A stretch of 64,000 nucleotides of DNA, taken from positions 2,282,551-2,346,550 of the forward strand of contig NZ_CP189850.1 of NCBI RefSeq assembly GCF_050271975.1. The letters run 5' to 3'. Shown piece by piece: positions 42,481 through 58,910 of this stretch. This DNA is from Litorimonas sp. WD9-15. GTDB lineage: Bacteria > Pseudomonadota > Alphaproteobacteria > Caulobacterales > Maricaulaceae. How positions within the stretch are numbered: position 1 is the first letter of the stretch; every line of letters starts with the position of its first letter. Below the pieces are notes generated by a model, which was not told the origin of the DNA, did not search any database, and saw only the letters and a program-made list of their open reading frames with translations. The position numbers were made by a program, and so were the translations under genes.

Positions 42481-43290
42481 TTAACCCGCTGGGTCGCTCA
42501 TCGCTTCCATATTGGCATCGGCTTGTTTGATTGCCGCTTCCAGGCGTTCTTCAGCCGTTTGTAGGTTCTTCTTCGGATCCTGATAAAAGGCCGTGAGCTT
42601 CATAATGTTGAGAAACGTCTTGTTCAGCACGCGACCGCCTAGCTTCATTGGACGGTCGAAATCGAATAAGAGAATGACGCGCTCTTCGTCGGTGTCGTTC
42701 CAGACCTCGTGCTCATAGGTGTCGTCAAACACAAAAATCTCCCCCTCTTTCCACGGCGTGATCGTATCATCGACGCGAATGCGACACTGCTCACGATCCT
42801 TTGGGATGATGAGCCCGAGATGGGAGCGCAGAATACCCTTGGTCACACCTTTATGGGCGGGAATATGATATCCGGGCGCGAGGATAGAGAACATGGCCGT
42901 CTGAAGATTCGGCACTTTTTCGAGAATATCAGAGGTTTTCGGCGCTAGTGCCGCATTTTTCTCCAACCGTTGACCAAATCCGAACAGCACGAATGTTTTC
43001 CAGTTATTCTCTGTTGAGAGACGGTACTGGTCCGGCGAGACTTCGTGAAATGTCGGAATGGCATCGCGGAATTTCAGGACCTCACGCGCTTCCACCTGAA
43101 TGGTTTCCCAATTCTCAGTGAAATCCTTCAGGAATGGGAAGTGATCATTCGCGATCTTGGGCGTGTCGGGCACTTTAGATTGTCCACTTTGAAACTTCGC
43201 AATTTTGCGCACGAGTTTCTTGCCATTCCGTTTGACGAAAGCCCGGCGTGGGTTGGTCAGATGTTTGGGTTTCTCAACAGGTGTAGCCAT
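42481..43290 (-). CDS. aspartyl/asparaginyl beta-hydroxylase family 2-oxoglutarate/Fe(II) oxygenase (LpxO-like)
   Basis: Start at MATPVEKPK; C-terminal HKGVTKGILRSHLGLIIP...FDDTYEHEVWN 2-His-1-carboxylate pattern. Confidence 0.7.
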   Translation of the reverse strand: MATPVEKPKHLTNPRRAFVKRNGKKLVRKIAKFQSGQSKVPDTPKIANDHFPFLKDFTENWETIQVEAREVLKFRDAIPTFHEVSPDQYRLSTENNWKTFVLFGFGQRLEKNAALAPKTSDILEKVPNLQTAMFSILAPGYHIPAHKGVTKGILRSHLGLIIPKDREQCRIRVDDTITPWKEGEIFVFDDTYEHEVWNDTDEERVILLFDFDRPMKLGGRVLNKTFLNIMKLTAFYQDPKKNLQTAEERLEAAIKQADANMEAMSDPAG

Positions 43291-43301
43291 AATTTGGCGC
43301 T

Positions 43302-44522
43302 TTACCCCTGCGCGCGTTCTTCGTCCACCATGTAATCCCGCGTGACGGGCAGCGCATGCACATCCTTTGTCAGCTGGATTTGGAAATTCATATGTTTGCC
43401 GAGTTGGAATGAGAGCTCCGAGATGGAGAGGTAAAATTCCCACATGCGGAAGAATTCTTCCCCCATCATCTCAACGATTTCGGCCTTTTGCGCCTGACAG
43501 CGCTTATTCCACTCAGCCAGCGTGTAGGCGTAATGAAGGCGCAGGATTTCACAATCCGAGACCCAGAGTCCCGCCTTCTCAATTTCAGCAAATGTTTCGG
43601 ATAAGGCAGGAGAATATCCACCCGGGAAAATATATTTTCGGATCCACGCACCGGTCGTGCCGGGACCACCCTTCCGGCCAATCGAATGCACAAGAGCGAC
43701 GCCCTCATCCGTTAGCAATTCACGTATCGTCTCAAAATATTCGGCAAAATGCCCGATCCCAACATGTTCGAACATTCCGACAGACACGATGCGGTCAAAA
43801 GGGCCTTCAACATCGCGGTAATCCTGCAATCGGATATCGACGAGATCTTCGAGGCCAGCGTCTTTCACCCGCTCTATTGCGAGGCTGTGCTGTTGAGTCG
43901 ACAGTGTAACGCCCACGACTTTGACGCCGTGTTCTTTCGCAAGATGCATTGCCATGCCGCCCCAGCCACACCCGATATCCAATACGCGCTGCCCGGCTTT
44001 CAGGTCCAATTTCGCCGCGATATGGCGCTTCTTGGCGAGTTGCGCCTCTTCCAGTGTCATGTCTGGGTCAGAGAAATAGGCGCAGCTATATTGCATGTCC
44101 TCGTCGAGGAACATTTTATACAGCTCGTTCGAAATATCGTAATGCGCCTTGACATTGGCCGAGCTGGCCGCGCGCGGATTGCGTTGATGCCAGCGTTTGA
44201 TTTTCTTATTCCACGCTTTGACTTTCGACCGAATAGGCCCTTTGCGGAGGCCGTCACGATTATTTGCGAAGACAGTCAGGAAATCATGGATCGTACAGTC
44301 GACCATTTCCAAACGGCCATCCATATAGGCTTCGCCCGCCACAAGTTCTGGGTTCTTCACTAACGCCATTGGAAGCGCAGTATCATTGATTTTGATTGTG
44401 GCCGATGGCTCTCCGCCTGACCCATAGGTGGTGGACGTGCCGTCAGGCAATATAACGGTCAATGCACCCTTCGATACGAAGCGCTGCATGACTTTATCTA
44501 ATAGAGTAGTACCGAGTCCCAT
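43302..44522 (-). CDS. cfa: cyclopropane-fatty-acyl-phospholipid synthase
   Basis: 406 aa; SAM motif VLDIGCGWGGMAMHLA and CFA family pattern ...VSVGMFEHVG. Confidence 0.9.
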   Translation of the reverse strand: MGLGTTLLDKVMQRFVSKGALTVILPDGTSTTYGSGGEPSATIKINDTALPMALVKNPELVAGEAYMDGRLEMVDCTIHDFLTVFANNRDGLRKGPIRSKVKAWNKKIKRWHQRNPRAASSANVKAHYDISNELYKMFLDEDMQYSCAYFSDPDMTLEEAQLAKKRHIAAKLDLKAGQRVLDIGCGWGGMAMHLAKEHGVKVVGVTLSTQQHSLAIERVKDAGLEDLVDIRLQDYRDVEGPFDRIVSVGMFEHVGIGHFAEYFETIRELLTDEGVALVHSIGRKGGPGTTGAWIRKYIFPGGYSPALSETFAEIEKAGLWVSDCEILRLHYAYTLAEWNKRCQAQKAEIVEMMGEEFFRMWEFYLSISELSFQLGKHMNFQIQLTKDVHALPVTRDYMVDEERAQG

Positions 44523-44564: not shown

Positions 44565-45320
44565 TTAGATAACAGCGAAGCGTTGACGCGCCATTTCGGA
44601 ATTTCCAAACAGCGAACGGCAGATTTCGTAATCTTCCGGCGTATCCAATTCGGACCAATCGGCACCTTTAATGTTGATTGTATCGATACGTTGTCCGGCC
44701 TGTGCCAGTCCGTGGATCGCAGACAAGAACCAGCTTTTCGTGCCGTCACGTGTCTTCATCAGGCGTTTGAGCTCATTGCGGAATGTCTTGGTACCCTCAC
44801 CCATAAAGCGAAGCATGCCGATGGATTCGCCGTCAGTTTCGGTCAATGGTAACGTCTTACCAATCGCCGTCAGACGCGGCCCATCGAGCGTGACCTTCAT
44901 GTCGTCGCCGTCATAATAACCCTTCTGGTCAATCGTGACGGCAATATGTGTTTTCGGTGCCGCAAGAATCGTTTGGAGCAATTCCGGTGAGAACAGCGTA
45001 TCGCCGTTAATGAGAAGGAAATCTTTCTTCATCGACTTTCGTGCCATCCAGCAAGAAGCCAGATTATCTGCAACTTGGAAGAAAGGGTTATAAAGCGTTT
45101 TGACCTTCGGCCCGGATTCACGCGCATCAATTTCGGCTTTGACCATGTGGCTATTAAAGCCCGTAATGACGGTCGCTGTTTTGACCCCATGTGCGAAAAG
45201 TGTGTCCAATTGCATACCCAAAACGGTCGTATTCCCGATGGGGAGAAGACATTTCGGCAAATTTGTTGTCAGCGGCAGGAGGCGTGATCCGCGGCCTGCG
45301 GCGAGAATAATAGCGTGCAT
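44565..45320 (-). CDS. small sugar/alcohol-phosphate nucleotidyltransferase (NTP_transferase family; LicC/IPCT-like)
   Basis: 251 aa; MHAIILAAGRGSRLLPLT...PKCLLPI signature G-rich loop of nucleotidyltransferases. Confidence 0.7.
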   Translation of the reverse strand: MHAIILAAGRGSRLLPLTTNLPKCLLPIGNTTVLGMQLDTLFAHGVKTATVITGFNSHMVKAEIDARESGPKVKTLYNPFFQVADNLASCWMARKSMKKDFLLINGDTLFSPELLQTILAAPKTHIAVTIDQKGYYDGDDMKVTLDGPRLTAIGKTLPLTETDGESIGMLRFMGEGTKTFRNELKRLMKTRDGTKSWFLSAIHGLAQAGQRIDTINIKGADWSELDTPEDYEICRSLFGNSEMARQRFAVI

Positions 45321-45349: not shown

Positions 45350-46021
45350 CTACTTAGACCAATCAACGGTTTCAAAACCATGAATGGCCGCCTCGCGAGT
45401 GAGTTTCGCATCAGCATTAACGGCCACGCCTTTGTCCGCAAATTTTAAAACGGGCAAGTCGGAATAACTGTCTGAGTACATAGTGATATGCGCTGCCTCA
45501 CGTTGGAAATCATCAAATGTTTCCAAACGTTTCGCCAGCATGTCCAATTTTCCGGGGCCATAGCAATTCTCGGAGCCAAAATAACGGGCGCATTTCCCGT
45601 CTTTCCACGCGAGTTTTGTACAGATCACCTCGTCAATGCCCAAGCGTTTGGCGATGGCTTCAACAACAATATCGGCTCCGGCGGAAGCTATGATAATTTT
45701 ATCCCCGGCTGCACGATGAATATCAAGCTGTCGGACAGCCCCGGGGCGGAGGCCATTTGCAATTTCGTTATCTGCAAACTTGTCGGCTAAAGCCTCCAAA
45801 ACGTCACGGCTTTGCCCAGACAGACTCCACCGTAACATACCCCGTTTGACGGAAATGCGCTCCGTTGAACCGACCTTGTAAATCAACTGTCCAAATCCGG
45901 CTCGCGCCCATAATCCAACTAGTTTCCAAGGCATTCCTTTGACAGAAAGCGAGACATACCGCCCCCACGTCCCACGGGTCGTGATCGTCTCATCCAGATC
46001 AAAAATCGCGTAACACTTCAC
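45350..46021 (-). CDS. HAD-IB subfamily phosphatase
   Basis: 223 aa; motif I FDLDETI; abuts upstream gene (46021/46022). Confidence 0.7.
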   Translation of the reverse strand: MKCYAIFDLDETITTRGTWGRYVSLSVKGMPWKLVGLWARAGFGQLIYKVGSTERISVKRGMLRWSLSGQSRDVLEALADKFADNEIANGLRPGAVRQLDIHRAAGDKIIIASAGADIVVEAIAKRLGIDEVICTKLAWKDGKCARYFGSENCYGPGKLDMLAKRLETFDDFQREAAHITMYSDSYSDLPVLKFADKGVAVNADAKLTREAAIHGFETVDWSK

Positions 46022-48529
46022 CTACGCGTCCATCCAGCTCGCGAGGGGGCGTTTGGCGAGAAGGCCCGCGATCAATGTACAGAAATTGGCGAAAATACAG
46101 ATCCAAGTCCACGCCGCAATCAGGAGGAACGCCCAATAACCTGCACCCGCAAAGACCACTGTAAGCATTATCCCGATCATCATAATGAACGTATTCGGGT
46201 TTCTTCGTGCGATGAAGAACCGAAGACCGGAATTAAAACGCGTCCAGACGTGAATATGAAATCCGTGCTGGCGCATAAAGATACCTTCAATCACGCGGTC
46301 CACGACATAGCCCACCCAAATCGCAAGCAGCGCGATAAAGAGCGGGTCGGACATTTGATACGTTCCGCCCAAACCGATCATCCACGCCCAGTACCAGAAG
46401 GGTGGATGGACGAGATCAATCCCGTGGTCATAAATATTGCCCCAATAGGAATAGGTCATGGTCGTCCGCGCCAGCTTCCCATCAACCGTGTCCAAGAAGG
46501 TCATCGTCCAGCCACACAGGAAACCCAGCGCCCAGAATTCATTCCAGAAGAACCATGTCGCCGCCAGCATCAGGAAGAAACCAACAGTCGTCACCTGATT
46601 GGGAGAAAGGCGCAGCCAAGCGCAGAACCGCGTGACATAAAAAGCCGGAACCGGCCAAAACCACTTCGTCACGAAATCGGTAATGCCTTTGTAAGAGGAC
46701 TTAAACTGACGCCGCATAATATCGAGGATAGGTGTCTCGTTCGTATCCAACACATAGGGCGCCTCCTGCTTGCGCAGGGATTTGATATAACCGTCATTCA
46801 CGTCGGAGGGGGCCGCGACAACGAAGTCTTCCCCTGCAAGTGCGTCAACCGTATTGCCGATGAAGCGCTCTGCCTCTGCCTGCGTAGCTGTAGAGAGACT
46901 GACGATCACACCGTTCTCTACGAGGGCCGTTCGTTCCGTCTTCGCAAAAGACTTGGACAGTTCTGCGGACATAATCCAGTCGACATGGTGCCAAATGCCT
47001 TGATCATTCACCTCAAGTGGAAGCGTGACATCCGCACCCGCTTTCTTGAACGCCCTGACCTGCCATTCCTTCAGGGGCAACCCCCAAATCTTGGCATCGG
47101 TTTCACCGATCAGGCCGAATCCCGGCGCTGTATTTTCCATTGCTGTTTCCGCTCCATGTGTTCGGGCTACGACTTTATCTAAAGCTTGTTTGGCAAGGAA
47201 GAGCAGAAGCCCGACCGCCACAAGATTTCCGGCAATCGCCGCCCATCCCGGTGCCATATGACCGATTGTAAAACTCAGGATGAAAAACGAAACAATATAA
47301 ACGAAAACCCCTGCCCCGCGCGCGTAAATCGCGCGTTCGGGATGATCCGTTGCATAAAGGACCGGGTAGAGAGGCGCCGCCATACCTAAGAGAGCTGCCG
47401 CAGGAACCAGTAAACTCGCAAGCGGCGCAGACTCGATATAATCCTGTGGTAGGAAAGACCCCAATAAACCACCCAAGAAGAGCCATATGAACAGGGAAAC
47501 TGTGAGGCCGAAAACCAGTAATATAACGGCTGTTTTAATGACCAGCCGCCAAATCTTGGCCGCCTCTCCCATCGTGACCATTTTCGCCAATTCCGGATAA
47601 ATAACTTGATCGAGGAGCTTAAACCCTTCGGAAAGAAGCTTCGCAATCTCTTCTGCAATGCGGTAAATCGAAACCCAACCCGCCCCGAACACTGCCATAA
47701 CAAGCAGCACTGGAAGGTGAACATTTGAAGCGGCGAGTGTCGAGTCGATATTTGCCTTAATCACGAAGGGCCAAACGCCCTTGCGCGGATTCAGAATATT
47801 CGATTTCGCCCTTAGAACAGGTTTCAACAATCGCCGTTTCCGCAGCTCAATCGCGGCGAGAAGTGGCATCGTCAGATAATCTGCCAGTGAGCCGATGAAC
47901 CAAGCAAGTAAGAAACCTTCCAGGCCCGCGCCTAATTGCGCAGCAATAACGACGCCGACAAAGCGAACCGCCGGCATAATAACGCCGTGCCACGCCAGAA
48001 CGTCAAAACGGTCAAAAAGACGGAAGACACCTATCGATGTGCCGCGATGGCGCAGGAGTAGCAGTAAGGAGTAGAAAATAACAAGTGTCTGCAATGTGCG
48101 AATATCAACAGACTGCCCGTCACGCTGGAACAGAGCTGGGAAACTTTCCGCAATGAAAACAACAAGCCAGAAACAGCAGACAGCCCCGATAAAGGCGACG
48201 ATCGCCGACAATATATCAAGCTTATAACCAAATTGCAGAAGCCGCGCGAGGCCCGTCGCATCATCATTTTTGACATCATCCATGCCAAACCGAATGATCG
48301 TTTGCCATGCCTGAAACGTCGCGAGTTGTGCGAAGAAAAGGTGATAGGCGTGAATAAAAAGGATAACACCCAAGGCCGCCACACTGAGGAATTTTGCCGC
48401 AATCAAAAGACTGCCAAGACCCAATAAGACTGACAGCACTTTTGAACCGACCATCAGCCCCGTATTGGCGGCGATACGCTTGCCGACGGAGTCAGTTGAA
48501 GCAACGGTCAGATTAGGCGATGTCATCAC
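46022..48529 (-). CDS. fusion protein: N-terminal MprF-type flippase-like polytopic domain + central soluble domain + C-terminal CDP-alcohol phosphotransferase domain
   Basis: 835 aa; ~8 TM helices in first 330 aa; C-terminal DTVDGKLARTTMTYSYWGNIYDHGID = D-G-x2-A-R-x8-G-x3-D-x3-D motif at approx 46400-46495; start overlaps upstream stop (ATGA). Confidence 0.75.
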   Translation of the reverse strand: MMTSPNLTVASTDSVGKRIAANTGLMVGSKVLSVLLGLGSLLIAAKFLSVAALGVILFIHAYHLFFAQLATFQAWQTIIRFGMDDVKNDDATGLARLLQFGYKLDILSAIVAFIGAVCCFWLVVFIAESFPALFQRDGQSVDIRTLQTLVIFYSLLLLLRHRGTSIGVFRLFDRFDVLAWHGVIMPAVRFVGVVIAAQLGAGLEGFLLAWFIGSLADYLTMPLLAAIELRKRRLLKPVLRAKSNILNPRKGVWPFVIKANIDSTLAASNVHLPVLLVMAVFGAGWVSIYRIAEEIAKLLSEGFKLLDQVIYPELAKMVTMGEAAKIWRLVIKTAVILLVFGLTVSLFIWLFLGGLLGSFLPQDYIESAPLASLLVPAAALLGMAAPLYPVLYATDHPERAIYARGAGVFVYIVSFFILSFTIGHMAPGWAAIAGNLVAVGLLLFLAKQALDKVVARTHGAETAMENTAPGFGLIGETDAKIWGLPLKEWQVRAFKKAGADVTLPLEVNDQGIWHHVDWIMSAELSKSFAKTERTALVENGVIVSLSTATQAEAERFIGNTVDALAGEDFVVAAPSDVNDGYIKSLRKQEAPYVLDTNETPILDIMRRQFKSSYKGITDFVTKWFWPVPAFYVTRFCAWLRLSPNQVTTVGFFLMLAATWFFWNEFWALGFLCGWTMTFLDTVDGKLARTTMTYSYWGNIYDHGIDLVHPPFWYWAWMIGLGGTYQMSDPLFIALLAIWVGYVVDRVIEGIFMRQHGFHIHVWTRFNSGLRFFIARRNPNTFIMMIGIMLTVVFAGAGYWAFLLIAAWTWICIFANFCTLIAGLLAKRPLASWMDA

Positions 48530-49263
48530 TGACGGTCTGCCAAAATCTGCTCAACCAGTTCGAGGTCGGACGGTTTATCAACGTCAATCGCAGCTTCGGC
48601 AAATGGGATCAGAACTGGGGCCGCCGTAATGCCGATGCGGCCTGCGGCATATTCAAAGGCGCCGCCCAAAGACAACCGCCCCGCCGCGAATTTGATCCCG
48701 ATACCGACCCCGACTTTTTTGGCCAATTTGAGCGGGTTTTTGCGCAAATGCTGAACCGACTGCCAGAATGCGATGGCTTTTAGGCCGTCCTCATTCGCAA
48801 TATAAAAGAGGTTGCACCCCGATACGGCGTAGTCAGAAAAGCGGAGATAGGTCCGTTTCGTCGTTGGATATTCAGCTTGAATAACCTCTTCTGTCGCGAG
48901 ACCAACACAAATATCTGTCCCTTCGGCCACGGCTCCGGAAACAAACGCTTCAACCATTTCGGGTGCCAGAAGCGCATGATCACAAGTCGTCACAAGGCAG
49001 GGATAGGTATCAATGTCTTCTAACCCCAAAAGGACACTATCCGCAGGTCCCTCGCCGCTGGGCACTTCTGTCAAGTCACTGCCCGAATAGCCGGAGATAT
49101 GAGGTGTCGGCATATTTGCGTCGGACAGCGCCGTACGAACACGGTCCAACATAGAAATGCCCGCCACAGAAATTTCCGCCTTGTGCGATACGCCCTTCGC
49201 CTCACAAAGCGGATCTACCACGCCTGCACGCTGCCCTGCCAAAATGAGAACGCTTGCGACCAT
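48526..49263 (-). CDS. MobA/CofC-like (NTP_transf_3) nucleotidyltransferase
   Basis: Start set at MVASVLILAGQRAG (glycine-rich NT loop); 245 aa; overlaps neighbours at both ends. Confidence 0.55.
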   Translation of the reverse strand: MVASVLILAGQRAGVVDPLCEAKGVSHKAEISVAGISMLDRVRTALSDANMPTPHISGYSGSDLTEVPSGEGPADSVLLGLEDIDTYPCLVTTCDHALLAPEMVEAFVSGAVAEGTDICVGLATEEVIQAEYPTTKRTYLRFSDYAVSGCNLFYIANEDGLKAIAFWQSVQHLRKNPLKLAKKVGVGIGIKFAAGRLSLGGAFEYAAGRIGITAAPVLIPFAEAAIDVDKPSDLELVEQILADRQ

Positions 49264-49264
49264 G

Positions 49265-50419
49265 TCAGCCGATCCGTTTTTCATACATGCGGTAAGTTTT
49301 ATAAGGCACGGCGCTGGCTTGCTCACAAATTGAAATCATGCCGTCATTATCCTCGAGAATCCAAGACAGCTCGCAATAGGTATAGCCCTTTTGGCGCGCG
49401 GCTTCGAACACAGTTTCGCACAGAGCTGCAACAAGTCCGAGCCCCTTGCGCGTGCCGTGATGTTTTGTACGGAGTCCCATCAGCGGCACCCGCGCCTGTT
49501 TCGCCTTCCCAGACTTTAGACGGTAAATAAGCTTGGCCCAATTGAACGGGAAGAGTTTCCCATCAAAGCCCTTTGCCAATTCGTTCAAGTCCGGAATCAG
49601 GCAGATAAAAGCGGCGGGCTCCCCGTCAATCTCGCCTATATAAAAACAATCCGAAGCAATGAGCGGTTTCATCTCTTTGGCGAGGTGCTGGATAGCGTCA
49701 TCCGGGAATTCTAGGAATCCCCAATTATTGCCCCACGCATCGTTGAAGATGCTCATGGCCAATTCGATATCGCGCGTGAAATTCTTTGGATCGAGTTTCC
49801 GCCAGCTTACGGCTTTGGACTTGGTCGCATAATCAACCATCATGCGTGTCACTTTCGGGCGCGGATATCCGGCGTGTAAATCCGCTTGAAAGGCGTACAT
49901 ATCAATCGCTTTGGCATAACCAGCCGTCTCGACCATGTCTTGATAATAGGGTTTGCCATATGACATCAGGACGACATTGGGACTATCAAACCCTTCAACA
50001 AGGAGGCCGACCTCCTCATTCACGCCCCATTGCGCAGGGCCGACCAATCGCTTTCGGCCTTTGTCTTTGGCCCATTCATCGGCCCTATTGAGGAGCATTT
50101 TGCCGAGTTCCGGATCATTTTCGCAATCAAAATAGCCAAAAAAGGCTGTTTCAACATCGTGCTGTCGATCATGGGCGGGATTTGTAAAAACCGCAATCCG
50201 GCCAATAATCGCGTCTCCTCTAACCGCTAGAAATAACGAGCGGTCCAAGTCTTTCGCAGCTGGATTCTTTACAGGGTCTAGCTGCTCTTTGCGCTCCAAC
50301 CTTAATGGCGGCGCCCAACTCGGATCCCCCCGATAAAGATCATAGGGCAAGTCTAGGAATTGCTGGACCTGCGCCTTTGTTTGAACGGAGACGATTTTGA
50401 TGTCGGCATTGGTCGGCAA
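49265..50419 (-). CDS. GNAT-fold N-acyltransferase, two-lobed ~384 aa (candidate lipid N-acyltransferase)
   Basis: Length and paired GNAT-like halves; first gene of the coupled operon. Confidence 0.55.
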   Translation of the reverse strand: MPTNADIKIVSVQTKAQVQQFLDLPYDLYRGDPSWAPPLRLERKEQLDPVKNPAAKDLDRSLFLAVRGDAIIGRIAVFTNPAHDRQHDVETAFFGYFDCENDPELGKMLLNRADEWAKDKGRKRLVGPAQWGVNEEVGLLVEGFDSPNVVLMSYGKPYYQDMVETAGYAKAIDMYAFQADLHAGYPRPKVTRMMVDYATKSKAVSWRKLDPKNFTRDIELAMSIFNDAWGNNWGFLEFPDDAIQHLAKEMKPLIASDCFYIGEIDGEPAAFICLIPDLNELAKGFDGKLFPFNWAKLIYRLKSGKAKQARVPLMGLRTKHHGTRKGLGLVAALCETVFEAARQKGYTYCELSWILEDNDGMISICEQASAVPYKTYRMYEKRIG

Positions 50420-50466: not shown

Positions 50467-51015
50467 TCAGGAAAGGTCAACCAGATGGATGTCGATGTCG
50501 ACGCCCTCCATCGGGACGTCAAATCCTGTCTCAGAGAATTTTGGAAGCCTTAGGGATTTGATTTCAGGGTTGTTTGACAAACCATAAGGCTCTTTGGGCT
50601 TAAAATTCCAAGCCTTTTTCAACCGGCGATCTCCGTCCTTATCGTGATAGCCGACGAGTGCATACTCGCCGGGCAGAGGCAGATTGATACAGACTTTGAC
50701 GGAACCGTCCTCTGCTGGAACACGAATACGGCGAAGTTTTCCTTTTTTCTTGAGAAAATCGCGCTCGCCAAACAGTTCTACCTTCACCATTCCAACTTTG
50801 GAGACATTGTGAATGGTGGCCCGAATCTGCAGAGCGCCCGGCACGCACGTGTCGGCTTTGTCTCGAGGATAGAGTTCTAAGCCGCGCTCCACACCTATTT
50901 CAGATAAGGTTTCTCGGAACTCATCATTGTCATCAGACCCATTATCCTGCGCGACCGCAAAACCGGCCGAGCCCATCATGCTCAAGATGACGAAAGCTTT
51001 AGACAGTTTTCTCAT
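50467..51015 (-). CDS. DUF2141-family secreted protein
   Basis: Start at MRKLSKAFVILSMMGSAGFAVAQ signal peptide; YALVGYHDKDGDRRL...PKEPYGLSNNPE matches DUF2141 core. Confidence 0.6.
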   Translation of the reverse strand: MRKLSKAFVILSMMGSAGFAVAQDNGSDDNDEFRETLSEIGVERGLELYPRDKADTCVPGALQIRATIHNVSKVGMVKVELFGERDFLKKKGKLRRIRVPAEDGSVKVCINLPLPGEYALVGYHDKDGDRRLKKAWNFKPKEPYGLSNNPEIKSLRLPKFSETGFDVPMEGVDIDIHLVDLS

Positions 51016-51133
51016 GTAGGCATTTGATTTCACGACGGTGTTTCCTTAAGCCTCACTGAACCCAAAAAAGGTCCTTAACAGCCATATGGGAAACGATTCC
51101 TCTGTCGTAAAGGCGTAATCACAGACCTGTCAT

Positions 51134-52369
51134 ATGGGCCGATTGAACCGATATATCCTGAAAAAAGCCTCGACAAGTGTCGGTGGGCTGGTCGTTTTCG
51201 CCTGTTGCGTTCTGCTAATGGAACGCCTGTTACGTATTTTCGAAATTGTTACAAATTCGACAAATCCTGCTTCTGACGCGACAAATATGATCGTGAACCT
51301 CCTGCCCTATTATCTCGGCATGGCGGTTCCGATGGCGTTGCTACTTGGCACAATCATCACGGTGGACCGCTTGTCAAAGTCGTCTGAATTGACCGCGGCT
51401 CTTGGTGCAGGCGTATCTCTTTTCCATATGACAAAGCCGTTCTTATGGCTCGCAATTTTCCTTGCAGGCCTGACCATGTTTATCGAAGGCTATATGCAGC
51501 CTGTTGGACGGTATAATTATCGCCAGGTTCTTCACGTCGTGAAACAGCAGAGTTTTACGGCGGCCTTACGAGAAGGCACGTTTACGGAAGTCTTAGACCG
51601 TACTTTTTTTGCGGGCACAGATTCGCCTGATGGCTCCATCGGACCAATCTTCATTTACGAAATGGTGGATGATGTGAACGCGAACGGAGAGCCCGTCAAA
51701 GGCTATCGCATTACAACGGCGGGCAAAGGCGAAATTACAATTCGCGATAAAGTCGATAATGCAAAAACAGGCGCACCCGTTTTGAACCTTGCAGAAGGGC
51801 GCGGTTTTCAAGTTTTGAATAGCACACTTTCGGGACAACTTGAATTCGGCGAGTTGACTGTTGCGGGCGCGACGAGTGAGACGGAATATCGCGTACGCGG
51901 TGATGATGAGCGGGAAATGACATCACTGGAGCTCTTTGCGAACCGTAAAGGTTCTGCTACCTCAAATATTGATCAAAACACAAATAACGCAGCGCTTCAC
52001 CTTCGCGTTTCCAAAGCCGTCCTTCTGATTTTACTTCCCTTCATCGCCGTGCCCTTCGGCCTGAACTACGGCCGAAACCCCTCCTCTGCCGGAATTTTTG
52101 TTGGCGTGGTCTTTCTGGTCTCACTTCAAAAAGCACTGGAATTTGGACAGTCATTGGGGGCGGCTGGAAAAATCCCGCCTTGGCTCGGCATTTGGGGGAT
52201 TATTGGTGTCGTCGCGATCTTCGCCTTCTTCCTGTTTTGGAAAAGCGCCTATAAAATGGGTCAGCCGCCTCTCACCTCATTCTCGCATTGGGTGGGACAC
52301 ATCAAAGGCGAGCTGCTTGGTGCGCTTAAGAAACTGACCCGCGACCGAAGGATCCCACAGGATGTATAG
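51134..52369 (+). CDS. lptF: LPS export ABC transporter permease LptF (YjgP/YjgQ family)
   Basis: 411 aa; MGRLNRYILKK... six TM with large periplasmic beta-jellyroll insert. Confidence 0.85.
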   Translation: MGRLNRYILKKASTSVGGLVVFACCVLLMERLLRIFEIVTNSTNPASDATNMIVNLLPYYLGMAVPMALLLGTIITVDRLSKSSELTAALGAGVSLFHMTKPFLWLAIFLAGLTMFIEGYMQPVGRYNYRQVLHVVKQQSFTAALREGTFTEVLDRTFFAGTDSPDGSIGPIFIYEMVDDVNANGEPVKGYRITTAGKGEITIRDKVDNAKTGAPVLNLAEGRGFQVLNSTLSGQLEFGELTVAGATSETEYRVRGDDEREMTSLELFANRKGSATSNIDQNTNNAALHLRVSKAVLLILLPFIAVPFGLNYGRNPSSAGIFVGVVFLVSLQKALEFGQSLGAAGKIPPWLGIWGIIGVVAIFAFFLFWKSAYKMGQPPLTSFSHWVGHIKGELLGALKKLTRDRRIPQDV

Positions 52370-53441
52370 GTTTGGCCTCTACATATCGAAGACTTTTCTC
52401 TTCACATGGCTGACCGTCGTCTTTGGGTTTCTAACATTGATCGGCCTGCTCGACAGTCTCGCGAATGGCGGAGATATTGTCGCCGATGGCAGTGGTTTTG
52501 CAGGAACGTTCAAATATATGTTTCTGCGCGCCCCTGTGATTTTTGACCGTATCTTTGTCTTCACCCTCGTCGTCGCAATCCTATTGACCTTCGTTAAACT
52601 CATCCGGCAACATGAGTTGGTTGCCCTGCTTGGCTTTGGCATATCCGCCACAAAGCAAGTCTGGCTGATGACGCCCGCCGTTGTCGGTGCGGCTATCATG
52701 TCGGTCATCTTTATCGACCTCGCCATGGCCCCCGCCGTTCGTTCATTACAAGCTTGGGGGATTGGCGAATATAAGGTGAAAAATATAACGGCGGAAAACC
52801 CGCTCTGGCTGGAAGATCGTGGTCGTATCGTGCGGGCCACAGACCGCCTTGGTTATAATAGTCTTGGTAATCTCAAGTTCTTCTTCCGAAGCGAAACCGG
52901 AGAAGTCGAACGCATTTGGCATGCCGAAAAGGCGGATTATCAAGACCCCAACTGGCTGTTGACTAATGTCGAGCAACTGGATGTCAAAGACGCGGACGGG
53001 GAGTCGCGAGAGCTTCGACCCGTCGCAGGAACGCGGGTTTGGGAAACGCGACAAACACCCACATCAATCGCCCGCCTCGCCGCAGAGCCGCGGGACCTCT
53101 CATTGTCCGAAATGCGGAATTTCTCCAAACGCGGCAATAGCGGGTCAAAACCAAGCTTTGCTTATAAATTCTGGCACGCACACCGTCTCACACGTCCCCT
53201 CGCCGCTTTCATATTGCTCATTGCCTGTGCTGCTCTCATGCAGCGGACAGGCCGTGAAGATACGGGCGACAAGACACTCATCATCGGCATTACGATGGGT
53301 TTTGTATTCCTCATCATTGACGGCGCGATGGCGACCTTTGCGGCGTCGGGCGGGATGGGTGTCCTACCCGCGATTGCGATACCACTGCTTCTCTTTGGAG
53401 TTACGGGCGCATATCTTCTGTTGAAAACAGAAAGTCTGTAA
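52362..53441 (+). CDS. lptG: LPS export ABC transporter permease LptG
   Basis: 359 aa; MYRFGLYISKTF...; 8-nt overlap with lptF. Confidence 0.85.
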   Translation: MYRFGLYISKTFLFTWLTVVFGFLTLIGLLDSLANGGDIVADGSGFAGTFKYMFLRAPVIFDRIFVFTLVVAILLTFVKLIRQHELVALLGFGISATKQVWLMTPAVVGAAIMSVIFIDLAMAPAVRSLQAWGIGEYKVKNITAENPLWLEDRGRIVRATDRLGYNSLGNLKFFFRSETGEVERIWHAEKADYQDPNWLLTNVEQLDVKDADGESRELRPVAGTRVWETRQTPTSIARLAAEPRDLSLSEMRNFSKRGNSGSKPSFAYKFWHAHRLTRPLAAFILLIACAALMQRTGREDTGDKTLIIGITMGFVFLIIDGAMATFAASGGMGVLPAIAIPLLLFGVTGAYLLLKTESL

Positions 53442-53449
53442 ACTTCGCT

Positions 53450-54349
53450 ATGAGACGGCTCTTCATAGTCAATTCTTTGTCAGAGCGCGTCGCACGTAAG
53501 GGCTCCGTTCTGCATGAACTCTACGGCGATACAGACGATATTTTTTATCTGGATCCTTTCGACTACCTCCCATCCACTGTTGAGAGAGCAGCGATAGACA
53601 AGGTCGAACATGTCATCATTGAAGGCGGAGACGGGACTGTTCAGGGCGTCATATCCGAATTTCTCCGACAAGAAGACAGGTTCGCAAATTTTCCAAAATT
53701 CTCCATCATCCCGGGTGGCATGACAAACCAGGTTGCCAAGAATATAGGTTTTGCGTCGGCGAGCCCACATAGAGTTAAAACAAAACTCGCGTCAGAACTC
53801 TCACCAACTAACAACCCACTTCTCATCGCGTCTGAACTGGACGGCCCTGATTATTCCGGTTTTCTCTTCTCGACTGGCGCGATTCCGCAGATCACACGCT
53901 ATACGACCGGCCAATTGCACCGCAAAGGGATTGGCGGATCATTGGCCGTGTTTGGCGGTATTCTCAAAGGTATTCGTGGCGACGACGCGACGCTGATGCA
54001 ACTGACGTCTGTTCATCTTGATGATCTCTATGAAGGTGAACATCTGGGCACAGTTATCACGACCCTTCCCGGTCTCATCTTGGGTCTCGACCCGTTTTGG
54101 GGAGAAGAAGAGGCTCCGCTTCGCCTGACTTGGGTGACGTCAGGTTATAAAAAACTGGGCCGCAATATTCTTGGCTTATGGCTGGGTCGCAAATCAGTTG
54201 ATCGCCGCAAAGACGGCATCTTCTCAGTCTGTCGTAACGAAATTAATTACAGCTATTCCGGCCCCGTCGTGTTGGACGGCGAATTTCTTTCATTCCCGTC
54301 AGGCAAATTTACTGTCCGCGCCAGCCGTCCTGTGACATTCCTACGATAG
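53450..54349 (+). CDS. diacylglycerol-kinase catalytic-domain (DAGK_cat/YegS/LCB5) lipid kinase; candidate ceramide/sphingoid kinase
   Basis: 299 aa; IIEGGDGTV (GGDGT ATP-site motif), IPGGMTNQ. Confidence 0.75.
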   Translation: MRRLFIVNSLSERVARKGSVLHELYGDTDDIFYLDPFDYLPSTVERAAIDKVEHVIIEGGDGTVQGVISEFLRQEDRFANFPKFSIIPGGMTNQVAKNIGFASASPHRVKTKLASELSPTNNPLLIASELDGPDYSGFLFSTGAIPQITRYTTGQLHRKGIGGSLAVFGGILKGIRGDDATLMQLTSVHLDDLYEGEHLGTVITTLPGLILGLDPFWGEEEAPLRLTWVTSGYKKLGRNILGLWLGRKSVDRRKDGIFSVCRNEINYSYSGPVVLDGEFLSFPSGKFTVRASRPVTFLR

Positions 54350-55270
54350 ATGAGCACGGTTCTGGATATCATAAAGGGTGAAACACTCGACCCGCCGGCG
54401 CGCGTCACTGCTGTTATGGACGCGATTCGCGCCCGTCACACCGATCGTGTTCAGGCCATGGTGTATTATGGCAGCTCATTACGAGAGCTGGATAACTCGG
54501 AAAAAATGCTCGATTTCTATGTGCTAGTAGATAGCTACCGTAAAACCCATGGTACCGGACCACGCGCCCTCATAAATCGCCTCATACCTCCCGCCGTTTA
54601 TTACCTCGAAAGAGAGAATGAGGACGGCACGCTAAGCACATGCAAATATTCAATTTTAAGCCTGTCGGAATTTGAAAGGCGCTGTAGTTCCAAGGCCTTC
54701 CTCTCACAGGTATGGGGACGCTTTTCGCAACCCTGCGCAGTCCTCTGGTCTAAGGAAGAGACCGTCTTGGATCGTGTCTGGGCGGGACGCGTTAAAGCTG
54801 TTGAAACGATGGCAGCGGAAACAGCGCCACTTCTCGAAGGACGCGCAACTGCCGCAGTATTTTGGGGGCGCGGATTTTACGAGAGCTACCAAACTGAGCT
54901 TCGCCCCGAAAGCTCTACCGGACGCGCAGAGGAAATCGTCGCCCGATTTGCGGAACGCTATGAAGCGATCACGACAGCTCTTTACGGCGCACCGGATGAA
55001 AACGGTAATTATGAAATTCCGCAGAAACCTATCGGAAAAGCCAAGCGCAGATGGTTCTTGCGACGTCTCTTAGGCAAGCCTGCCGCCGCGATCCGCGTGC
55101 TGCTCGGAGCAGCGACATTTGATGGTGGGATTGATTATGTCGCCCGAAAGGTAGAGAATCACTCCGGAGTCAAATTGGACCCCACACCTGCGCAACGTCG
55201 TCATCCGGTGCTACATTCACCGTTTTTGTTCTGGAAACTATGGCGAAAAGGCGCTTTTCGGGCAAATTAG
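54350..55270 (+). CDS. Tam41/Mmp37-like nucleotidyltransferase-fold protein (mitochondrial-type CDP-diacylglycerol synthase homologue)
   Basis: 306 aa; MVYYGSSLRELDNSEKMLDFYVLVDSY...YYLE pattern resembling Tam41 family; abuts kinase gene (54349/54350). Confidence 0.5.
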   Translation: MSTVLDIIKGETLDPPARVTAVMDAIRARHTDRVQAMVYYGSSLRELDNSEKMLDFYVLVDSYRKTHGTGPRALINRLIPPAVYYLERENEDGTLSTCKYSILSLSEFERRCSSKAFLSQVWGRFSQPCAVLWSKEETVLDRVWAGRVKAVETMAAETAPLLEGRATAAVFWGRGFYESYQTELRPESSTGRAEEIVARFAERYEAITTALYGAPDENGNYEIPQKPIGKAKRRWFLRRLLGKPAAAIRVLLGAATFDGGIDYVARKVENHSGVKLDPTPAQRRHPVLHSPFLFWKLWRKGAFRAN

Positions 55271-55567: not shown

Positions 55568-56800
55568 CTATTCCGCGGCCTGCATCCGGATCATCATACC
55601 GGACATAATTTCGGCCTGACTGGCCTTCATTCGCCCAAATGCATCAATGATAATATTCACATCGCTTTCCGTATGCGCCGCAGAGAGTGAGATACGGAGC
55701 AAAGACGAGCTCTGCGGTGTTCCGGGTGGAACAGCGAGGTTCACGTAAACGCCGTTTTCCATCAGCCAATTCCATTCCATCGCTGCAATGCCTTCATTAG
55801 GACGACGCACAGCGATGACGGGACTCGGGTCAGCGCAGAGGTCGAAATCCAAAGCCTTCAACCCGGCATGAAGCTGTTGCGCCCGCGCTTTCAAATTCTC
55901 GCGCAAGTACCCACCCGTCTTGACCTTCTCAACGGCGACACGCGCCGCGCAAATATTGGCGGGCGTGGCAGACGCCGTAAACATATAGGGGCGCATAACT
56001 TTGCGTGTAATTTCAAATTGAGGATGTTTGGACGCACAAAATCCACCGACAGAAGCAAGGGATTTTGAGAATGTGCCCGATATAAAGTCAACCTGATCCA
56101 AAACGCCCTGCTCTTCCGCAATGCCGCAGCCAGTGGGGCCGAACACACCGTAGGAATGCGCTTCATCGATAAAGAGATAGCCGCCATGACGGTGCGTCAC
56201 ATCGAGAAATTCATCCACGGGCGCAATATCACCGAACATGGAATACATACCTTCAATCACAACAAGGGCATTGCCGCCCTCAATCTCACCTTGTCGGCGG
56301 AGACGTTTATCCAGATCTTCCGGGTTATTATGGCGGAAACGAATGGTCGACGCATTGGTCAGGCGCGATCCATCAATGATACAGGCATGCGCATCTGCAT
56401 CCATAAAGATGACATCTTTATCACCGGCCAGCCCCGAAATCGCGGCAAGGTTCGTCTGATAGCCCGTCGTAAACACGATACAGGACGGCATTCCGAAATG
56501 TTCTGCCAAGGCCTGTTCCAAATCTGTGTGTTCTGCATATGTTCCGTTTGCAACGCGGGATCCCGTCGTACCCGTACCGTGATCATCAACAGCAGTTTTC
56601 GCGGCGGCGCGACAATCCTCATCGAATGTCAGGCCGAGATAGTTATTCGTACCAGCCAGAAGAATTTCGCGGTTACCGATACGCCCGCGGGTCGCGGACA
56701 AAATATCATCGAATTTCACGCCCAGCGCATCGGCGCCGATCTTCATCATCATATCAACGCGCGTTTGAAGCGGTGCGTATTTGTCAAACAAAGCCGTCAT
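55568..56800 (-). CDS. spt: serine palmitoyltransferase (alpha-oxoamine synthase family, PLP)
   Basis: 410 aa; long colinear matches to Sphingomonas SPT (ILLAGTNNYLGLTFDED, IRFRHNNPEDLDKRL, VIEGMYSMFGDIAP, DEAHS..GTFSKS PLP-Lys, YVNLAVPPGTP). Confidence 0.85.
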   Translation of the reverse strand: MTALFDKYAPLQTRVDMMMKIGADALGVKFDDILSATRGRIGNREILLAGTNNYLGLTFDEDCRAAAKTAVDDHGTGTTGSRVANGTYAEHTDLEQALAEHFGMPSCIVFTTGYQTNLAAISGLAGDKDVIFMDADAHACIIDGSRLTNASTIRFRHNNPEDLDKRLRRQGEIEGGNALVVIEGMYSMFGDIAPVDEFLDVTHRHGGYLFIDEAHSYGVFGPTGCGIAEEQGVLDQVDFISGTFSKSLASVGGFCASKHPQFEITRKVMRPYMFTASATPANICAARVAVEKVKTGGYLRENLKARAQQLHAGLKALDFDLCADPSPVIAVRRPNEGIAAMEWNWLMENGVYVNLAVPPGTPQSSSLLRISLSAAHTESDVNIIIDAFGRMKASQAEIMSGMMIRMQAAE

Positions 56801-57048
56801 CAGGACATCAATCCTTTTGCGGCCAGTGAAAGTTCGCCAACGGTTTTAATGTCGGACACCATCTCCATCGGAATTGAGATATCGTAATGATCTTCCAACT
56901 CCATAATAAAATCGAAAACGGCCACCGAATCGACCTCCAGATCCGACATAATGCCAGAAGACCGCTCAATCGGCAGGCCCTTGGGATTATACGGCTTCAA
57001 AAGCTCACAAATCTTATCGTAAATCTCTGACTCAGTGGGGGCGGTCAT
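56800..57048 (-). CDS. dedicated acyl carrier protein
   Basis: 82 aa; DLEVDSVAVFDFIMELE with phosphopantetheinylated Ser context; stop overlaps spt start. Confidence 0.8.
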   Translation of the reverse strand: MTAPTESEIYDKICELLKPYNPKGLPIERSSGIMSDLEVDSVAVFDFIMELEDHYDISIPMEMVSDIKTVGELSLAAKGLMS

Positions 57049-57119: not shown

Positions 57120-58910
57120 CTATTTTGACGCGCTATCTGCAACAACTCTTAAAGTTTCATCCGATTGCAAGTCGATGATCGCGCCTTCGAGGAACTTTGC
57201 CTTCACACGGGCACGGGAAAGCTTGCCGGAGCTGGTGATAATCATCGTTGATTTTGGCACCAACATCAGGCGGACGGGCACACCAACCTCCAGGCGAATC
57301 GCCGCCGTGACAGCCGTATAAATTTCTTCCAATAGCTTCGGGTTACGCGTTCGACATTCAAGCAATAGCATAATGTCTTTTTCATCACCCGCACCCCCAA
57401 TGGCAAACGCACAGGCCCGACCACACCGATGTGGCGCGGCAGCTTGTGCGGCCCATTCAATATCCTGTGGCCAAATATTCCGGCCATGCCAGAGAATCAG
57501 GTCCTTAAAACGTCCTGTGACAACCAATTGGCCTTCATGCCAATATCCGGCATCGCCTGTGTCCAACCACCCGTCTTTTGAGAAAGAAGCTTCCGTCGCC
57601 TGCGTATTTCGGAAATAGCCGGGAGACACGGACGGTCCACGGAGACAAACACGGCCAACTTGCTTTTCAGACAAAACGTTATCGTCAAAATCACGAATTT
57701 CGATTTCATGATCCGGTAGGACATGTCCGCAAGCCACAAAAGACCGTCGGCTTTCCTCGCGCGTGACCTCAGACGCTTCAACAGCCTCAGACGTACGCGC
57801 GTAGCGCTCCATATCGATTGTGTGTGTCTTTAGCCCCTGCCCCAATGGCGCAAAAGTTGCGGCCAATGTTGTTTCTGCCAAACCGTATGACGGTGTAAAA
57901 ACGCCCTGCCCAAAACCCATATCTGCGAATAGGTTTTGAAAATCTGTCAGAGGTTCAGGACGCACCATATCACCGCCAATCCCGGCCACACGCCAACTCG
58001 ACAAATCAAGCTCACGATCTTCACGCCAACGCCGCACGCAGAGTTCGTAGCCAAATGTGGGTGAGTAAGAGAGCGTGCCCTTATGATCAGAGATCAATTG
58101 CAGCCATGTAATAGGCCGGCGCGTAAAGTCCTGTGGATCAATGTAATCAACGGACATTTGTGCCGTCATCGGCGCGATCAAAAACCCGATCAAACCCATA
58201 TCATGATAGAGCGGGAGCCAAGAGGTCCCCCGGTCTGTCTCGGTCATTTTCATACCGTGTTTCGTAATCGCCAAGCAATTGGCACAGACGGATTTCTGCG
58301 TTCCAATAATACCCTTTGGCGAAGAAGAGGAACCAGAAGAATATTGAATATAACAGAGATCATCCTTACCAAATGGTCGCAAAACATCTCCCTTTGGCAA
58401 ATTCCCAACAGCCTCAAATGTCATCACTGGAATCGCCTGATCATTTAAGGCCGAACGCATAATGCCGTCCATTGATTCCGGGCATAAAAGTGCGTGAAAA
58501 TCACCCGTATCAGCCATCCGTTGCAATTGCCGTTCATACGAACTCCGCCCGCCCAGCGTAACAGGCAGCGGTACAGGGGCAGCGACAAGACCTGCATATT
58601 GGCAGGCGAAAAACATAACCGCGAATTCGGGAGTCGAAACGGCCGCAATTCCAATACGTGAATTTTTCTTGGCGAATGGAACAAGGCGCTTTGCCATCTC
58701 AATAGCTTGGCTATGAAGATCAGCATAAGAAAGCGCCGCCTTTGGACGTGCTTTACCATCGAAATATGACAGTCCCGTCTTTGCTGTTGCGGCATAGTCG
58801 AGTGCATCACACAGGGTTTCAAAATCGCCATGTCGAATGGGGACACCCCGTTCAGTCGGCAGAACCTGGATGGTTTCGGCTTCAGTCATACTCATATCTC
58901 GCTCAGTCAC
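57120..58910 (-). CDS. acyl-ACP synthetase / fatty-acyl-AMP ligase (ANL adenylating superfamily)
   Basis: 596 aa; AMP-binding motif YIQYSSGSSSSPKGI; directly upstream of ACP-spt. Confidence 0.8.
   Translation of the reverse strand: MTERDMSMTEAETIQVLPTERGVPIRHGDFETLCDALDYAATAKTGLSYFDGKARPKAALSYADLHSQAIEMAKRLVPFAKKNSRIGIAAVSTPEFAVMFFACQYAGLVAAPVPLPVTLGGRSSYERQLQRMADTGDFHALLCPESMDGIMRSALNDQAIPVMTFEAVGNLPKGDVLRPFGKDDLCYIQYSSGSSSSPKGIIGTQKSVCANCLAITKHGMKMTETDRGTSWLPLYHDMGLIGFLIAPMTAQMSVDYIDPQDFTRRPITWLQLISDHKGTLSYSPTFGYELCVRRWREDRELDLSSWRVAGIGGDMVRPEPLTDFQNLFADMGFGQGVFTPSYGLAETTLAATFAPLGQGLKTHTIDMERYARTSEAVEASEVTREESRRSFVACGHVLPDHEIEIRDFDDNVLSEKQVGRVCLRGPSVSPGYFRNTQATEASFSKDGWLDTGDAGYWHEGQLVVTGRFKDLILWHGRNIWPQDIEWAAQAAAPHRCGRACAFAIGGAGDEKDIMLLLECRTRNPKLLEEIYTAVTAAIRLEVGVPVRLMLVPKSTMIITSSGKLSRARVKAKFLEGAIIDLQSDETLRVVADSASK

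Follow-up and report, generated by a model that had tools for sequence, protein, structure and literature searches.

In Caulobacter crescentus, deletion of cpgA abolishes ceramide di-phosphoglycerate (CPG2) and leaves ceramide phosphoglycerate (CPG) in place (PMC9393093). Genetic evidence for cpgA in the conversion of CPG to CPG2 comes from Caulobacter only. The donor for CpgA is hypothesised to be CDP-glycerate, the product of the CTP:phosphoglycerate cytidylyltransferase encoded by cpgD (CC_1152) (PMC12275187). Of the other genes, CC_1153 encodes a MobA/CofC-like nucleotidyltransferase, bCerS (CC_1154) the ceramide synthase and cpgB the ceramide kinase; lptG2 and lptF2 are sphingolipid-specific Lpt paralogues, and cpgC, spt, acpR, cerR and aasR are the remaining head-group and ceramide genes. 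Here we analysed a stretch of 64,000 nt from Litorimonas sp. WD9-15 (contig NZ_CP189850.1, positions 2,282,551 to 2,346,550 of the forward strand; hereafter the window), in which the counterpart of cpgA is joined in one open reading frame (ORF) to the counterpart of CC_1166, the gene of a proposed sphingolipid flippase.

CC_1166 is an IPR002797 (Polysacc_synt) protein, and the proposal that it is a phosphosphingolipid flippase is based on this domain annotation and on the cofitness of its mutant with lptF2 and cpgD (Olea-Ozuna et al. 2024, PMC11324152, S1 Text). A calcineurin-type phosphoesterase domain was reported for CC_1158 in the same source (PMC11324152, S1 Text). LptF2G2 is needed for sphingolipid export and pairs with LptB; how sphingolipids reach the cell surface is still 'a mystery' in the words of the 2026 preprint on this permease, which leaves the flipping step aside (bioRxiv 10.64898/2026.04.12.717747). 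A literature search for a fusion of a Wzx protein with a CDP-alcohol transferase found nothing relevant. The Litorimonas ORF is a fusion of a MOP/Wzx-type putative sphingolipid flippase with CpgA, and we consider it likely that the CpgA half makes CPG2 and that the MOP half flips the product.

A single conserved ORF with two membrane domains

The fused gene is one open frame without interruption. Its parts are listed below in coordinates of the window.

46022..48529, minus strand: whole fused ORF, 835 aa from GTG 48529, with the stop TAG at 46022-46024
47192..48529, minus strand: MOP/Wzx-type (Polysacc_synt-like) domain, aa 1-446, 12 transmembrane (TM) helices (Foldseek, CC_1166-type homology)
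47105..47191, minus strand: fusion junction, aa 447-475, variable in length and sequence, with a predicted local distance difference test (pLDDT) score below 50 at aa 459-466
46694..47104, minus strand: CpgA-native cytoplasmic alpha/beta domain, aa 476-612 (AlphaFold2 secondary structure, stand-alone homologues, Foldseek)
46025..46693, minus strand: juxtamembrane helices and 6-TM CDP-alcohol phosphotransferase domain (PF01066), aa 613-835 (Pfam, PDB profile, Foldseek)
46415..46492, minus strand: catalytic signature DTVDGKLAR-x8-GNIYDHGID, aa 680-705 (motif and alignment of relatives)

The start codon is probably ATG 48526, one codon inside the GTG, which would give a protein of 834 aa. This start is the likelier one because it overlaps the upstream stop as TGATG and because the 100%-identical database protein has 834 aa. 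Nearly all of the 120 homologues listed are 824-871 aa long, with 99-100% of the query aligned. A single fused ORF was found in 11 independently assembled loci (one near-identical pair counted once), among them that of Hellea balneolensis, where it sits on an 893-kb contig. According to the sequence-only reading of this stretch, a polytopic domain of flippase type is joined to a CDP-alcohol phosphotransferase; proteins of ~834 aa in more than 100 independent assemblies confirm that this fusion is genuine and conserved. The public annotation, 'CDP-alcohol phosphatidyltransferase family protein', overlooks the flippase half.

The domain anatomy was derived from hydropathy and from an AlphaFold2 model (mean pLDDT 80.1, predicted template-modelling score (pTM) 0.55). 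The model has a helical membrane bundle up to ~aa 446-461, low confidence at 459-466, an alpha/beta fold at 470-612 and a helical membrane domain at 619-823. The N-terminal membrane domain spans ~446 aa with 12 TM helices by both hydropathy and AlphaFold2, where the sequence-only reading had given it ~330 aa. The region of aa 447-642, described there as a soluble linker of ~200 aa, consists mostly of a folded alpha/beta domain (476-612) that is also present in stand-alone CpgA; the junction proper covers ~447-475 alone and lies at nt 47105-47191, not at 47500-47600, where a check of the linker had been advised. This junction is the least conserved segment of the protein (majority fraction 0.41 vs 0.59-0.78 elsewhere) and differs in length and sequence among the fused homologues. 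Conservation of the N-half is on par with the rest of the protein (majority fraction 0.69).

Across the whole protein, the short loops on one side of the membrane contain 29 Lys and Arg residues and those on the other side contain 1, which indicates an N-in, C-in topology with 18 TM helices. The 196-aa soluble region, both termini and the catalytic motif are predicted to be cytoplasmic.

A methionine in the junction, M464 (ATG 47140-47138), lines up with the beginning of stand-alone CpgA and is preceded by GGAG 11 nt upstream. This element (47138-47155, minus strand) may be left over from the ribosome-binding site of the ancestral gene, or it may act as a weak internal start. A Met at any position of the junction is found in just 17 of 46 fused homologues, and therefore the CpgA half of most of them can be made only within the fusion.

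The N-terminal half is a homologue of CC_1166

A Foldseek search of the PDB returned two interleaved sets of matches. Those of the N-half were MurJ (6nc6, E 1.3e-7) and WzxE, over ~440-480 aligned columns, as well as MATE proteins. The inward-facing WzxE entries 9g9p and 9g9n gave target-normalised TM-scores of 0.73-0.75. PF01943 was matched by 11 of 24 aligned N-half relatives (best E 2.8e-17) and PF13440 by 9 of the 24, and several fused homologues carry precomputed PF01943 or PF13440 assignments. A profile of this 24-member family had WzxE as its sole PDB match (E 0.012). Residues 17-444 of the window protein aligned with the 459-aa ORF at the CC_1166 position of Caulobacter sp. CCH9-E1 at 29% identity (E 9e-44). 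Collectively, these results identify the N-half as a protein of MOP/Wzx fold and topology and as a homologue of CC_1166, although its own sequence gave no match at E <= 10 to PF01943, PF13440, PF14667 or any other Pfam family.

This membrane domain had been likened to the MprF flippase. The likeness failed in every test: there was no Pfam match at E <= 10, and so none to the MprF/LPG-synthase TM family, no MprF among the top 50 PDB fold matches and none among the profile matches at E <= 1, and the position of the aminoacyl-phosphatidylglycerol synthase domain at the C-terminus of MprF is held here by a CDP-alcohol phosphotransferase. The domain belongs instead to the MOP superfamily of MurJ, WzxE and MATE.

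The C-terminal half groups with CpgA

The Pfam family CDP-OH_P_transf (PF01066) matches aa 642-804 with 31.1 bits (gathering cutoff 22). At aa 680-705, DTVDGKLARTTMTYSYWGNIYDHGID matches the pattern D-x2-D-G-x2-A-R-x8-G-x3-D-x3-D. In an alignment of 64 relatives (29-60% identity), D680, D683, G684, A687, R688 and G697 do not vary, while at least 90% of the sequences keep D701 and D705. In the positive-inside topology, the motif spans the cytoplasmic loop between TM14 and TM15. The claim that the C-terminus carries a CDP-alcohol phosphotransferase motif embedded in TM helices holds, with a Pfam score above the cutoff, an intact motif and a 6-TM domain around it.

In the Foldseek search of the PDB, the matches of the C-half were PIPS, AF2299 and IPCT-DIPPS at E 5e-7 to 5e-6. 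Its sequence profile found the AfCTD-PIPS fusion, AF2299, phosphatidylinositol synthases and choline/ethanolamine phosphotransferases, and covered the TM domain alone. Foldseek alignments of ~380 columns were obtained to the AF2299 and AfCTD-PIPS fusion chains, and this alignment length, the sole basis of the comparison, suggests that the soluble domain resembles the N-domain of AF2299.

In Caulobacter sp. CCH9-E1, the cpgA position holds an ORF of 379 aa that also carries PF01066; its residues 5-377 aligned with residues 464-833 of the window protein (38% identity, E 2e-82). The C-half is 44-46% identical to syntenic Hyphomonas proteins of 378 aa. By full-length similarity and cluster location, we assign it to the CpgA orthologous group (CC_1159/CCNA_01217). 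Unlike the norm of this group, which is a stand-alone protein of ~375-400 aa, it is fused behind a 446-aa MOP domain.

A degenerate or active cytidylyltransferase of the IPCT type was considered for the soluble region and rejected, as no NTP-transferase Pfam family matched at E <= 10 and the PDB profile matches were confined to the TM domain. The model for bifunctional IPCT-DIPPS, NF041135, scored 28 bits on the fused protein against a cutoff of 580. The best NCBIfam matches were inositol-phosphate enzymes, far under their cutoffs.

The fusion lies in a sphingolipid gene cluster

The genes around the fusion are listed below.

44565..45320, minus strand: CpgD-like CTP:phosphoglycerate cytidylyltransferase (NTP_transferase), 47-50% identical to the ORF at the CC_1152 position of Caulobacter loci
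45350..46021, minus strand: HAD-IB phosphatase, its start abutting the stop of the fusion gene (TAG-GTG)
48526..49326, minus strand: MobA/CofC-like NTP_transf_3 protein, homologue of CC_1153, its stop overlapping the start of the fusion gene
49265..50419, minus strand: bCerS-like N-acyltransferase (GNAT-like, 384 aa), homologue of CC_1154 (Pfam, tblastn)
50467-51033, minus strand: DUF2141 protein, between bCerS and lptF2
51134..53441, plus strand: LptF2/LptG2 paralogues, homologues of CC_1156/CC_1155, sphingolipid extraction permease (tblastn)
53450-54349, plus strand: CpgB-like ceramide kinase (DAGK_cat) (synteny and tblastn)
54350-55270, plus strand: CpgC-like protein of 306 aa without a Pfam domain (synteny and tblastn)
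55568-56800, minus strand: Spt (aminotransferase), ceramide backbone
56803-57048, minus strand: AcpR (small acyl carrier protein), ceramide backbone
57120-58910, minus strand: AasR (AMP-binding enzyme), ceramide backbone
42481-44522, minus strand: cyclopropane-fatty-acyl-phospholipid (CFA) synthase and LpxO/OlsC-type Asp/Arg hydroxylase, downstream of the cpgD homologue

As transcribed, the minus-strand genes run in the order DUF2141, GNAT-like, NTP_transf_3, fusion, HAD-IB, NTP_transferase, CFA synthase and Asp/Arg-hydroxylase family, and they are divergent from the plus-strand genes for the two LptF/LptG paralogues, the DAGK_cat kinase and the 306-aa protein. This block of genes is also present in Hellea. 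A promoter and terminator scan of 41.8-51.3 kb gave counts close to the shuffled expectation.

We scanned one genome per species, which yielded 80 cpgA-type loci, and compared 15 window proteins by tblastn with 85 loci. In the loci of Caulobacter, Phenylobacterium and Brevundimonas, the genes follow exactly the order known from the literature (cpgD, CC_1153, bCerS, lptG2, lptF2, ..., cpgA, cpgB, cpgC, spt, ..., aasR, flippase), and each gene in this order was matched by a counterpart in the window. Judged by these matches, the window cluster corresponds to the sphingolipid region CC_1152-CC_1168 of C. crescentus. Neither this ceramide phosphoglycerate context nor the occurrence of both halves as separate Caulobacter genes (CC_1166 and cpgA/CC_1159) was part of the sequence-only reading. 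Among the remaining genes sought, AcpR alone was recovered; no cerR, CC_1167-like or HIT (CC_1157-like) gene was found in the 64-kb window by tblastn at E <= 1e-3. A gene for the ceramide reductase must lie elsewhere.

The neighbouring CpgD homologue presumably makes the CDP-glycerate donor. A match between this cytidylyltransferase and a solved CpgD structure was sought and discarded, the PDB search returning no chain named CpgD and having LicC (1jyk) and the T. maritima entry 4jd0 as its best matches.

The HAD-IB phosphatase gene lies directly downstream of cpgA in 24 of the 85 loci, which range from Maricaulales to Candidatus Nitrotoga and Kiloniellales (for example 11143-11832 in L004 and 11161-11847 in L005; also in L024, L034 and L064). 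The enzyme might stand in for the phosphoesterase CC_1158 or catalyse a dephosphorylation step that has escaped notice.

Several other neighbours deserve mention. The arrangement of CFA synthase and Asp/Arg hydroxylase is kept in the Hellea loci, and both enzymes are candidates for tailoring the acyl chain of the sphingolipid; an acyl hydroxyl group of unplaced position may be present in published CPG species. The DUF2141 protein is conserved between bCerS and lptF2 from Maricaulales to Caulobacter, in most loci (for example 8521-9012 in L026), and we found no mention of it in the cluster gene lists. Some relatives have a GMC/DAO-type oxidoreductase of 532 aa between the cpgD homologue and the CFA synthase (14129-15727 in L002/L003), with no equivalent in the window.

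Distribution and origin of the fusion

An exhaustive profile search of 1.84 billion representative proteins found one 50%-identity representative of the full-length fusion (P0121, 842 aa), plus fragments. The same search returned many stand-alone proteins of ~465 aa that match positions 1-455 and many of ~375-400 aa that match positions ~465-833. As a rule, then, each half forms a complete protein of its own, and the soluble domain is part of the transferase half.

The arrangement of the two genes shifts by steps from lineage to lineage. They are far apart in Hyphomonas (published as HNE_1594 and HNE_1581), and the H. polymorpha locus reads cpgA-HAD-cpgD with no adjacent flippase gene; in Caulobacter, too, the flippase gene is distant from cpgA. 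In Henriciella, it comes immediately before cpgA in the same orientation, ~350 bp away. In Fretibacter rubidus and in L013, an uncultured Caulobacterales metagenome-assembled genome (MAG), the two genes abut in frame (TAA ATG), and the Fretibacter proteins are 56% (a stand-alone protein of 464 aa) and 54% identical to the two halves. Hellea species, related Caulobacterales MAGs and the Litorimonas window have one ORF. Hellea and Fretibacter both belong to the Robiginitomaculaceae, order Maricaulales. The simplest history is relocation of the flippase gene, then abutment, then loss of a single in-frame stop; the opposite course, in which an original fusion came apart in Fretibacter and L013, is less parsimonious.

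CpgA has also been fused to other partners. It is followed by a C-terminal DAGK_cat domain (CpgB-like kinase) in P0184 and P0192 (738-779 aa) and preceded by an N-terminal NTP_transf_3 domain (CC_1153-like) in P0177 (698 aa), and fusion partners therefore track pathway membership. P0263 (616 aa) is another of the CpgA-type proteins with other fusion partners, and CpgA forms of ~740-790 aa (P0189, P0205, P0239) have a C-terminal extension without a Pfam match.

Proposed function and alternatives

For the donor, the acceptor, the flipping step and the hand-off between the two halves, our proposal draws on Caulobacter genetics and on the biochemistry of CpgD. The adjacent CpgD homologue would make CDP-glycerate in the cytoplasm. 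The CpgA half, with its active site and alpha/beta domain facing the cytoplasm, would move phosphoglycerate from CDP-glycerate to inner-leaflet ceramide phosphoglycerate, with CPG2 (or a close variant) and CMP as the products. The tethered 12-TM MOP half would then take this highly anionic product and flip it to the periplasmic leaflet, from which the LptF2G2 permease encoded next door would extract the lipid for transport to the outer membrane. Synthesis followed by flipping had already been put forward in the sequence-only reading, and it is the most economical interpretation; in the predicted topology, the cytoplasm holds the soluble domain, the catalytic motif and both ends of the protein. 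The joining of the MOP half to the enzyme that acts last on the head group in the cytoplasm speaks for the finished anionic lipid as its cargo.

Several points weigh against this proposal. The substrates demonstrated for MOP-family proteins do not, to our knowledge, include one anchored by ceramide, and the N-half of the query itself has no Pfam match at E <= 10. In Caulobacter and Hyphomonas, the flippase gene lies beside early ceramide genes, a position that also fits the flipping of an earlier intermediate. We infer the head group in Litorimonas and Hellea from orthologues that are 38-50% identical. The HAD-IB phosphatase is outside the published CPG2 scheme and the Caulobacter cpg genes; since it is conserved and has no place in that scheme, the chemistry here may differ in detail. 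The pTM of 0.55 makes the relative placement of the two membrane domains, and any continuous groove between them, unreliable in the AlphaFold2 model. Finally, of the 63 cpgA loci whose flanks were adequate, 25 had no flippase homologue within 10 kb, and N. eutropha, A. vinelandii and P. luteola have cpgA with no reported CC_1166 orthologue (PMC11324152). Another flippase must therefore serve in these beta- and gammaproteobacterial carriers of cpgA.

Of the alternatives, the one that fares best, although improbable, keeps the two activities and couples them more tightly. The lateral gate of the MOP half would take the lipid straight from the CpgA active site, and if this is true the highly charged sphingolipid would never accumulate in the inner leaflet. 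In the extreme version, CpgA would be processive and a poly(phosphoglycerate) chain built on ceramide would be exported; higher-order phosphoglycerate polymers were explicitly left possible by Zik et al. (PMC9393093). The product would then be a teichoic-acid-like sphingolipid polymer, exported by a Wzx-like domain. In either version, the protein would be the first MOP flippase shown to carry a sphingolipid and the first found in fusion with the enzyme completing its cargo.

Slightly less probable is that the MOP half flips an early intermediate, passing oxidised ceramide from the cytoplasmic leaflet to a periplasmic CerR, and that the fusion serves co-regulation or complex assembly. A periplasmic location has been reported for CerR, which requires oxidised ceramide to cross the membrane early, and no flippase is known (PMC11087976). 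The gene order of Caulobacter and Hyphomonas, in which the flippase gene is next to aasR/cerR/acpR/spt and not to cpgA, points the same way. However, the fusion partner is the last cytoplasmic head-group enzyme, and in Henriciella, Fretibacter and Hellea the flippase gene has moved off the early genes to a place beside cpgA. The CC_1166 mutant, moreover, shares cofitness with lptF2 and cpgD. Neutral ceramides flip spontaneously and multiply charged head groups need a transporter, and the known substrates of MOP flippases bear large anionic head groups; both facts count against an early intermediate as the cargo.

About equally improbable is a lipid other than CPG2, which the transferase half would produce by adding another phospho-alcohol (phosphoglycerol or phosphoinositol) or by using a phosphorylated acceptor that the HAD-IB enzyme trims. 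There is precedent in PgsA/Pgp, in PIPS with PIP-phosphatase and in DIPPS, and the HAD-IB gene, which follows cpgA in 24 of 85 loci, abuts the fusion gene here. The window has no CC_1157 (HIT) homologue, and its Pfam-scanned genes include no calcineurin-type phosphoesterase domain (CC_1158). Identity to Caulobacter CpgA is just 38%, and the inositol-phosphate enzymes that came closest in NCBIfam, far under their cutoffs, can be read in the same sense. Against this, the full syntenic set of cpgB, cpgC, cpgD and CC_1153 is present, the CpgD homologue is 47-50% identical to that of Caulobacter, and no myo-inositol-phosphate synthase was found among the neighbours tested.

It is very unlikely that the N-half is an ordinary Wzx for a glycan linked to undecaprenyl pyrophosphate, or a non-transporting scaffold, and that the fusion has no meaning for sphingolipids. 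PF01943 and PF13440 are polysaccharide-flippase families, and the protein is named 'O-antigen/teichoic acid export membrane protein' by JGI. But there are no glycosyltransferase, Wzy or undecaprenyl-phosphate genes among the cluster genes tested, the homologue lies inside the sphingolipid clusters of Caulobacter, Phenylobacterium, Brevundimonas and Henriciella, and the N-half matches the rest of the protein in conservation (majority fraction 0.69). An artefact of sequencing or assembly, or a missed stop or frameshift at the junction, has next to no chance of being the source of the fusion: an in-frame stop does stand at this very point in Fretibacter and L013, which are close relatives, but more than 100 non-redundant proteins of ~834 aa from NCBI, JGI, ENA and Logan assemblies and the 11 independently assembled single-ORF loci, among them the 893-kb contig of Hellea balneolensis and the 3.1-Mb contig of a Litorimonas sp. 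WD9-15 protein whose 90% cluster includes the window protein, rule out the missed frameshift or stop that the sequence-only reading had allowed for.

Significance and comparison with known systems

Both parts of the protein, the pathway and the suggestion that CC_1166 is a flippase are already in the literature. New here are the covalent joining of the two parts, its confinement to a single 50%-identity cluster in 1.84 billion proteins and its traceable origin. The passage of bacterial sphingolipids across the inner membrane is a recognised gap in knowledge, and the fusion provides Rosetta-stone evidence on the flippase. The natural fusion, its intermediate stages and the parallel fusions of CpgA are independent evidence that the CC_1166-type MOP protein works with the last head-group enzyme. 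Should the MOP half indeed flip the CPG2 made by the CpgA half, the cargo range of MOP/Wzx proteins would grow from polyprenyl-linked glycans to ceramide lipids. The fusion also offers an experimental handle, as a single gene holds the homologues of both cpgA and CCNA_01224, and it is confined to a small group of marine bacteria.

The resemblance to MprF is one of concept only, in that a head-group-modifying enzyme and a flippase for its product share one polypeptide. Fold and family are unrelated, and the soluble synthase of MprF is C-terminal and depends on aminoacyl-tRNA. AF2299 and IPCT-DIPPS of Archaeoglobus are closer, as their cytosolic alpha/beta domain likewise precedes a catalytic domain of 6 TM helices, and they are the best PDB matches of the C-half by sequence and by fold; in the Litorimonas protein, however, the soluble domain has no nucleotidyltransferase Pfam match, and the cytidylyltransferase is encoded by a separate gene, the CpgD homologue. 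With WzxE, MurJ and TacF, the N-half shares the 12-TM fold (Foldseek E ~1e-7), the N-in/C-in topology and Arg/Asp residues conserved in the helical core, whereas sequence similarity is marginal (profile E 0.012, WzxE alone) and the cargo is presumed to be anchored by ceramide and not, as theirs is, by undecaprenyl pyrophosphate. We know of no WzxE-, MurJ- or TacF-type MOP flippase that is fused to the enzyme completing its cargo.

The closest counterparts of the two halves are the C. crescentus proteins. The Caulobacter protein at the cpgA position aligns end to end with the C-half (aa 464-835) and has the same cytoplasmic domain, 6-TM domain and motif, and both clusters contain cpgB, cpgC, cpgD, CC_1153, bCerS and lptF2G2 as partners. 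In Litorimonas, by contrast, CpgA is the C-terminal 45% of an 835-aa polypeptide, and the HAD-IB neighbour is outside the Caulobacter cpg gene list. The ORF at the position of CC_1166 (CCNA_01224) is similar in size to the N-half, aligns with it over aa 17-444 and lies in the same cluster. It stands as a gene of its own beside aasR in Caulobacter, Hyphomonas and Sphingomonas, whereas here it is covalently joined to CpgA.

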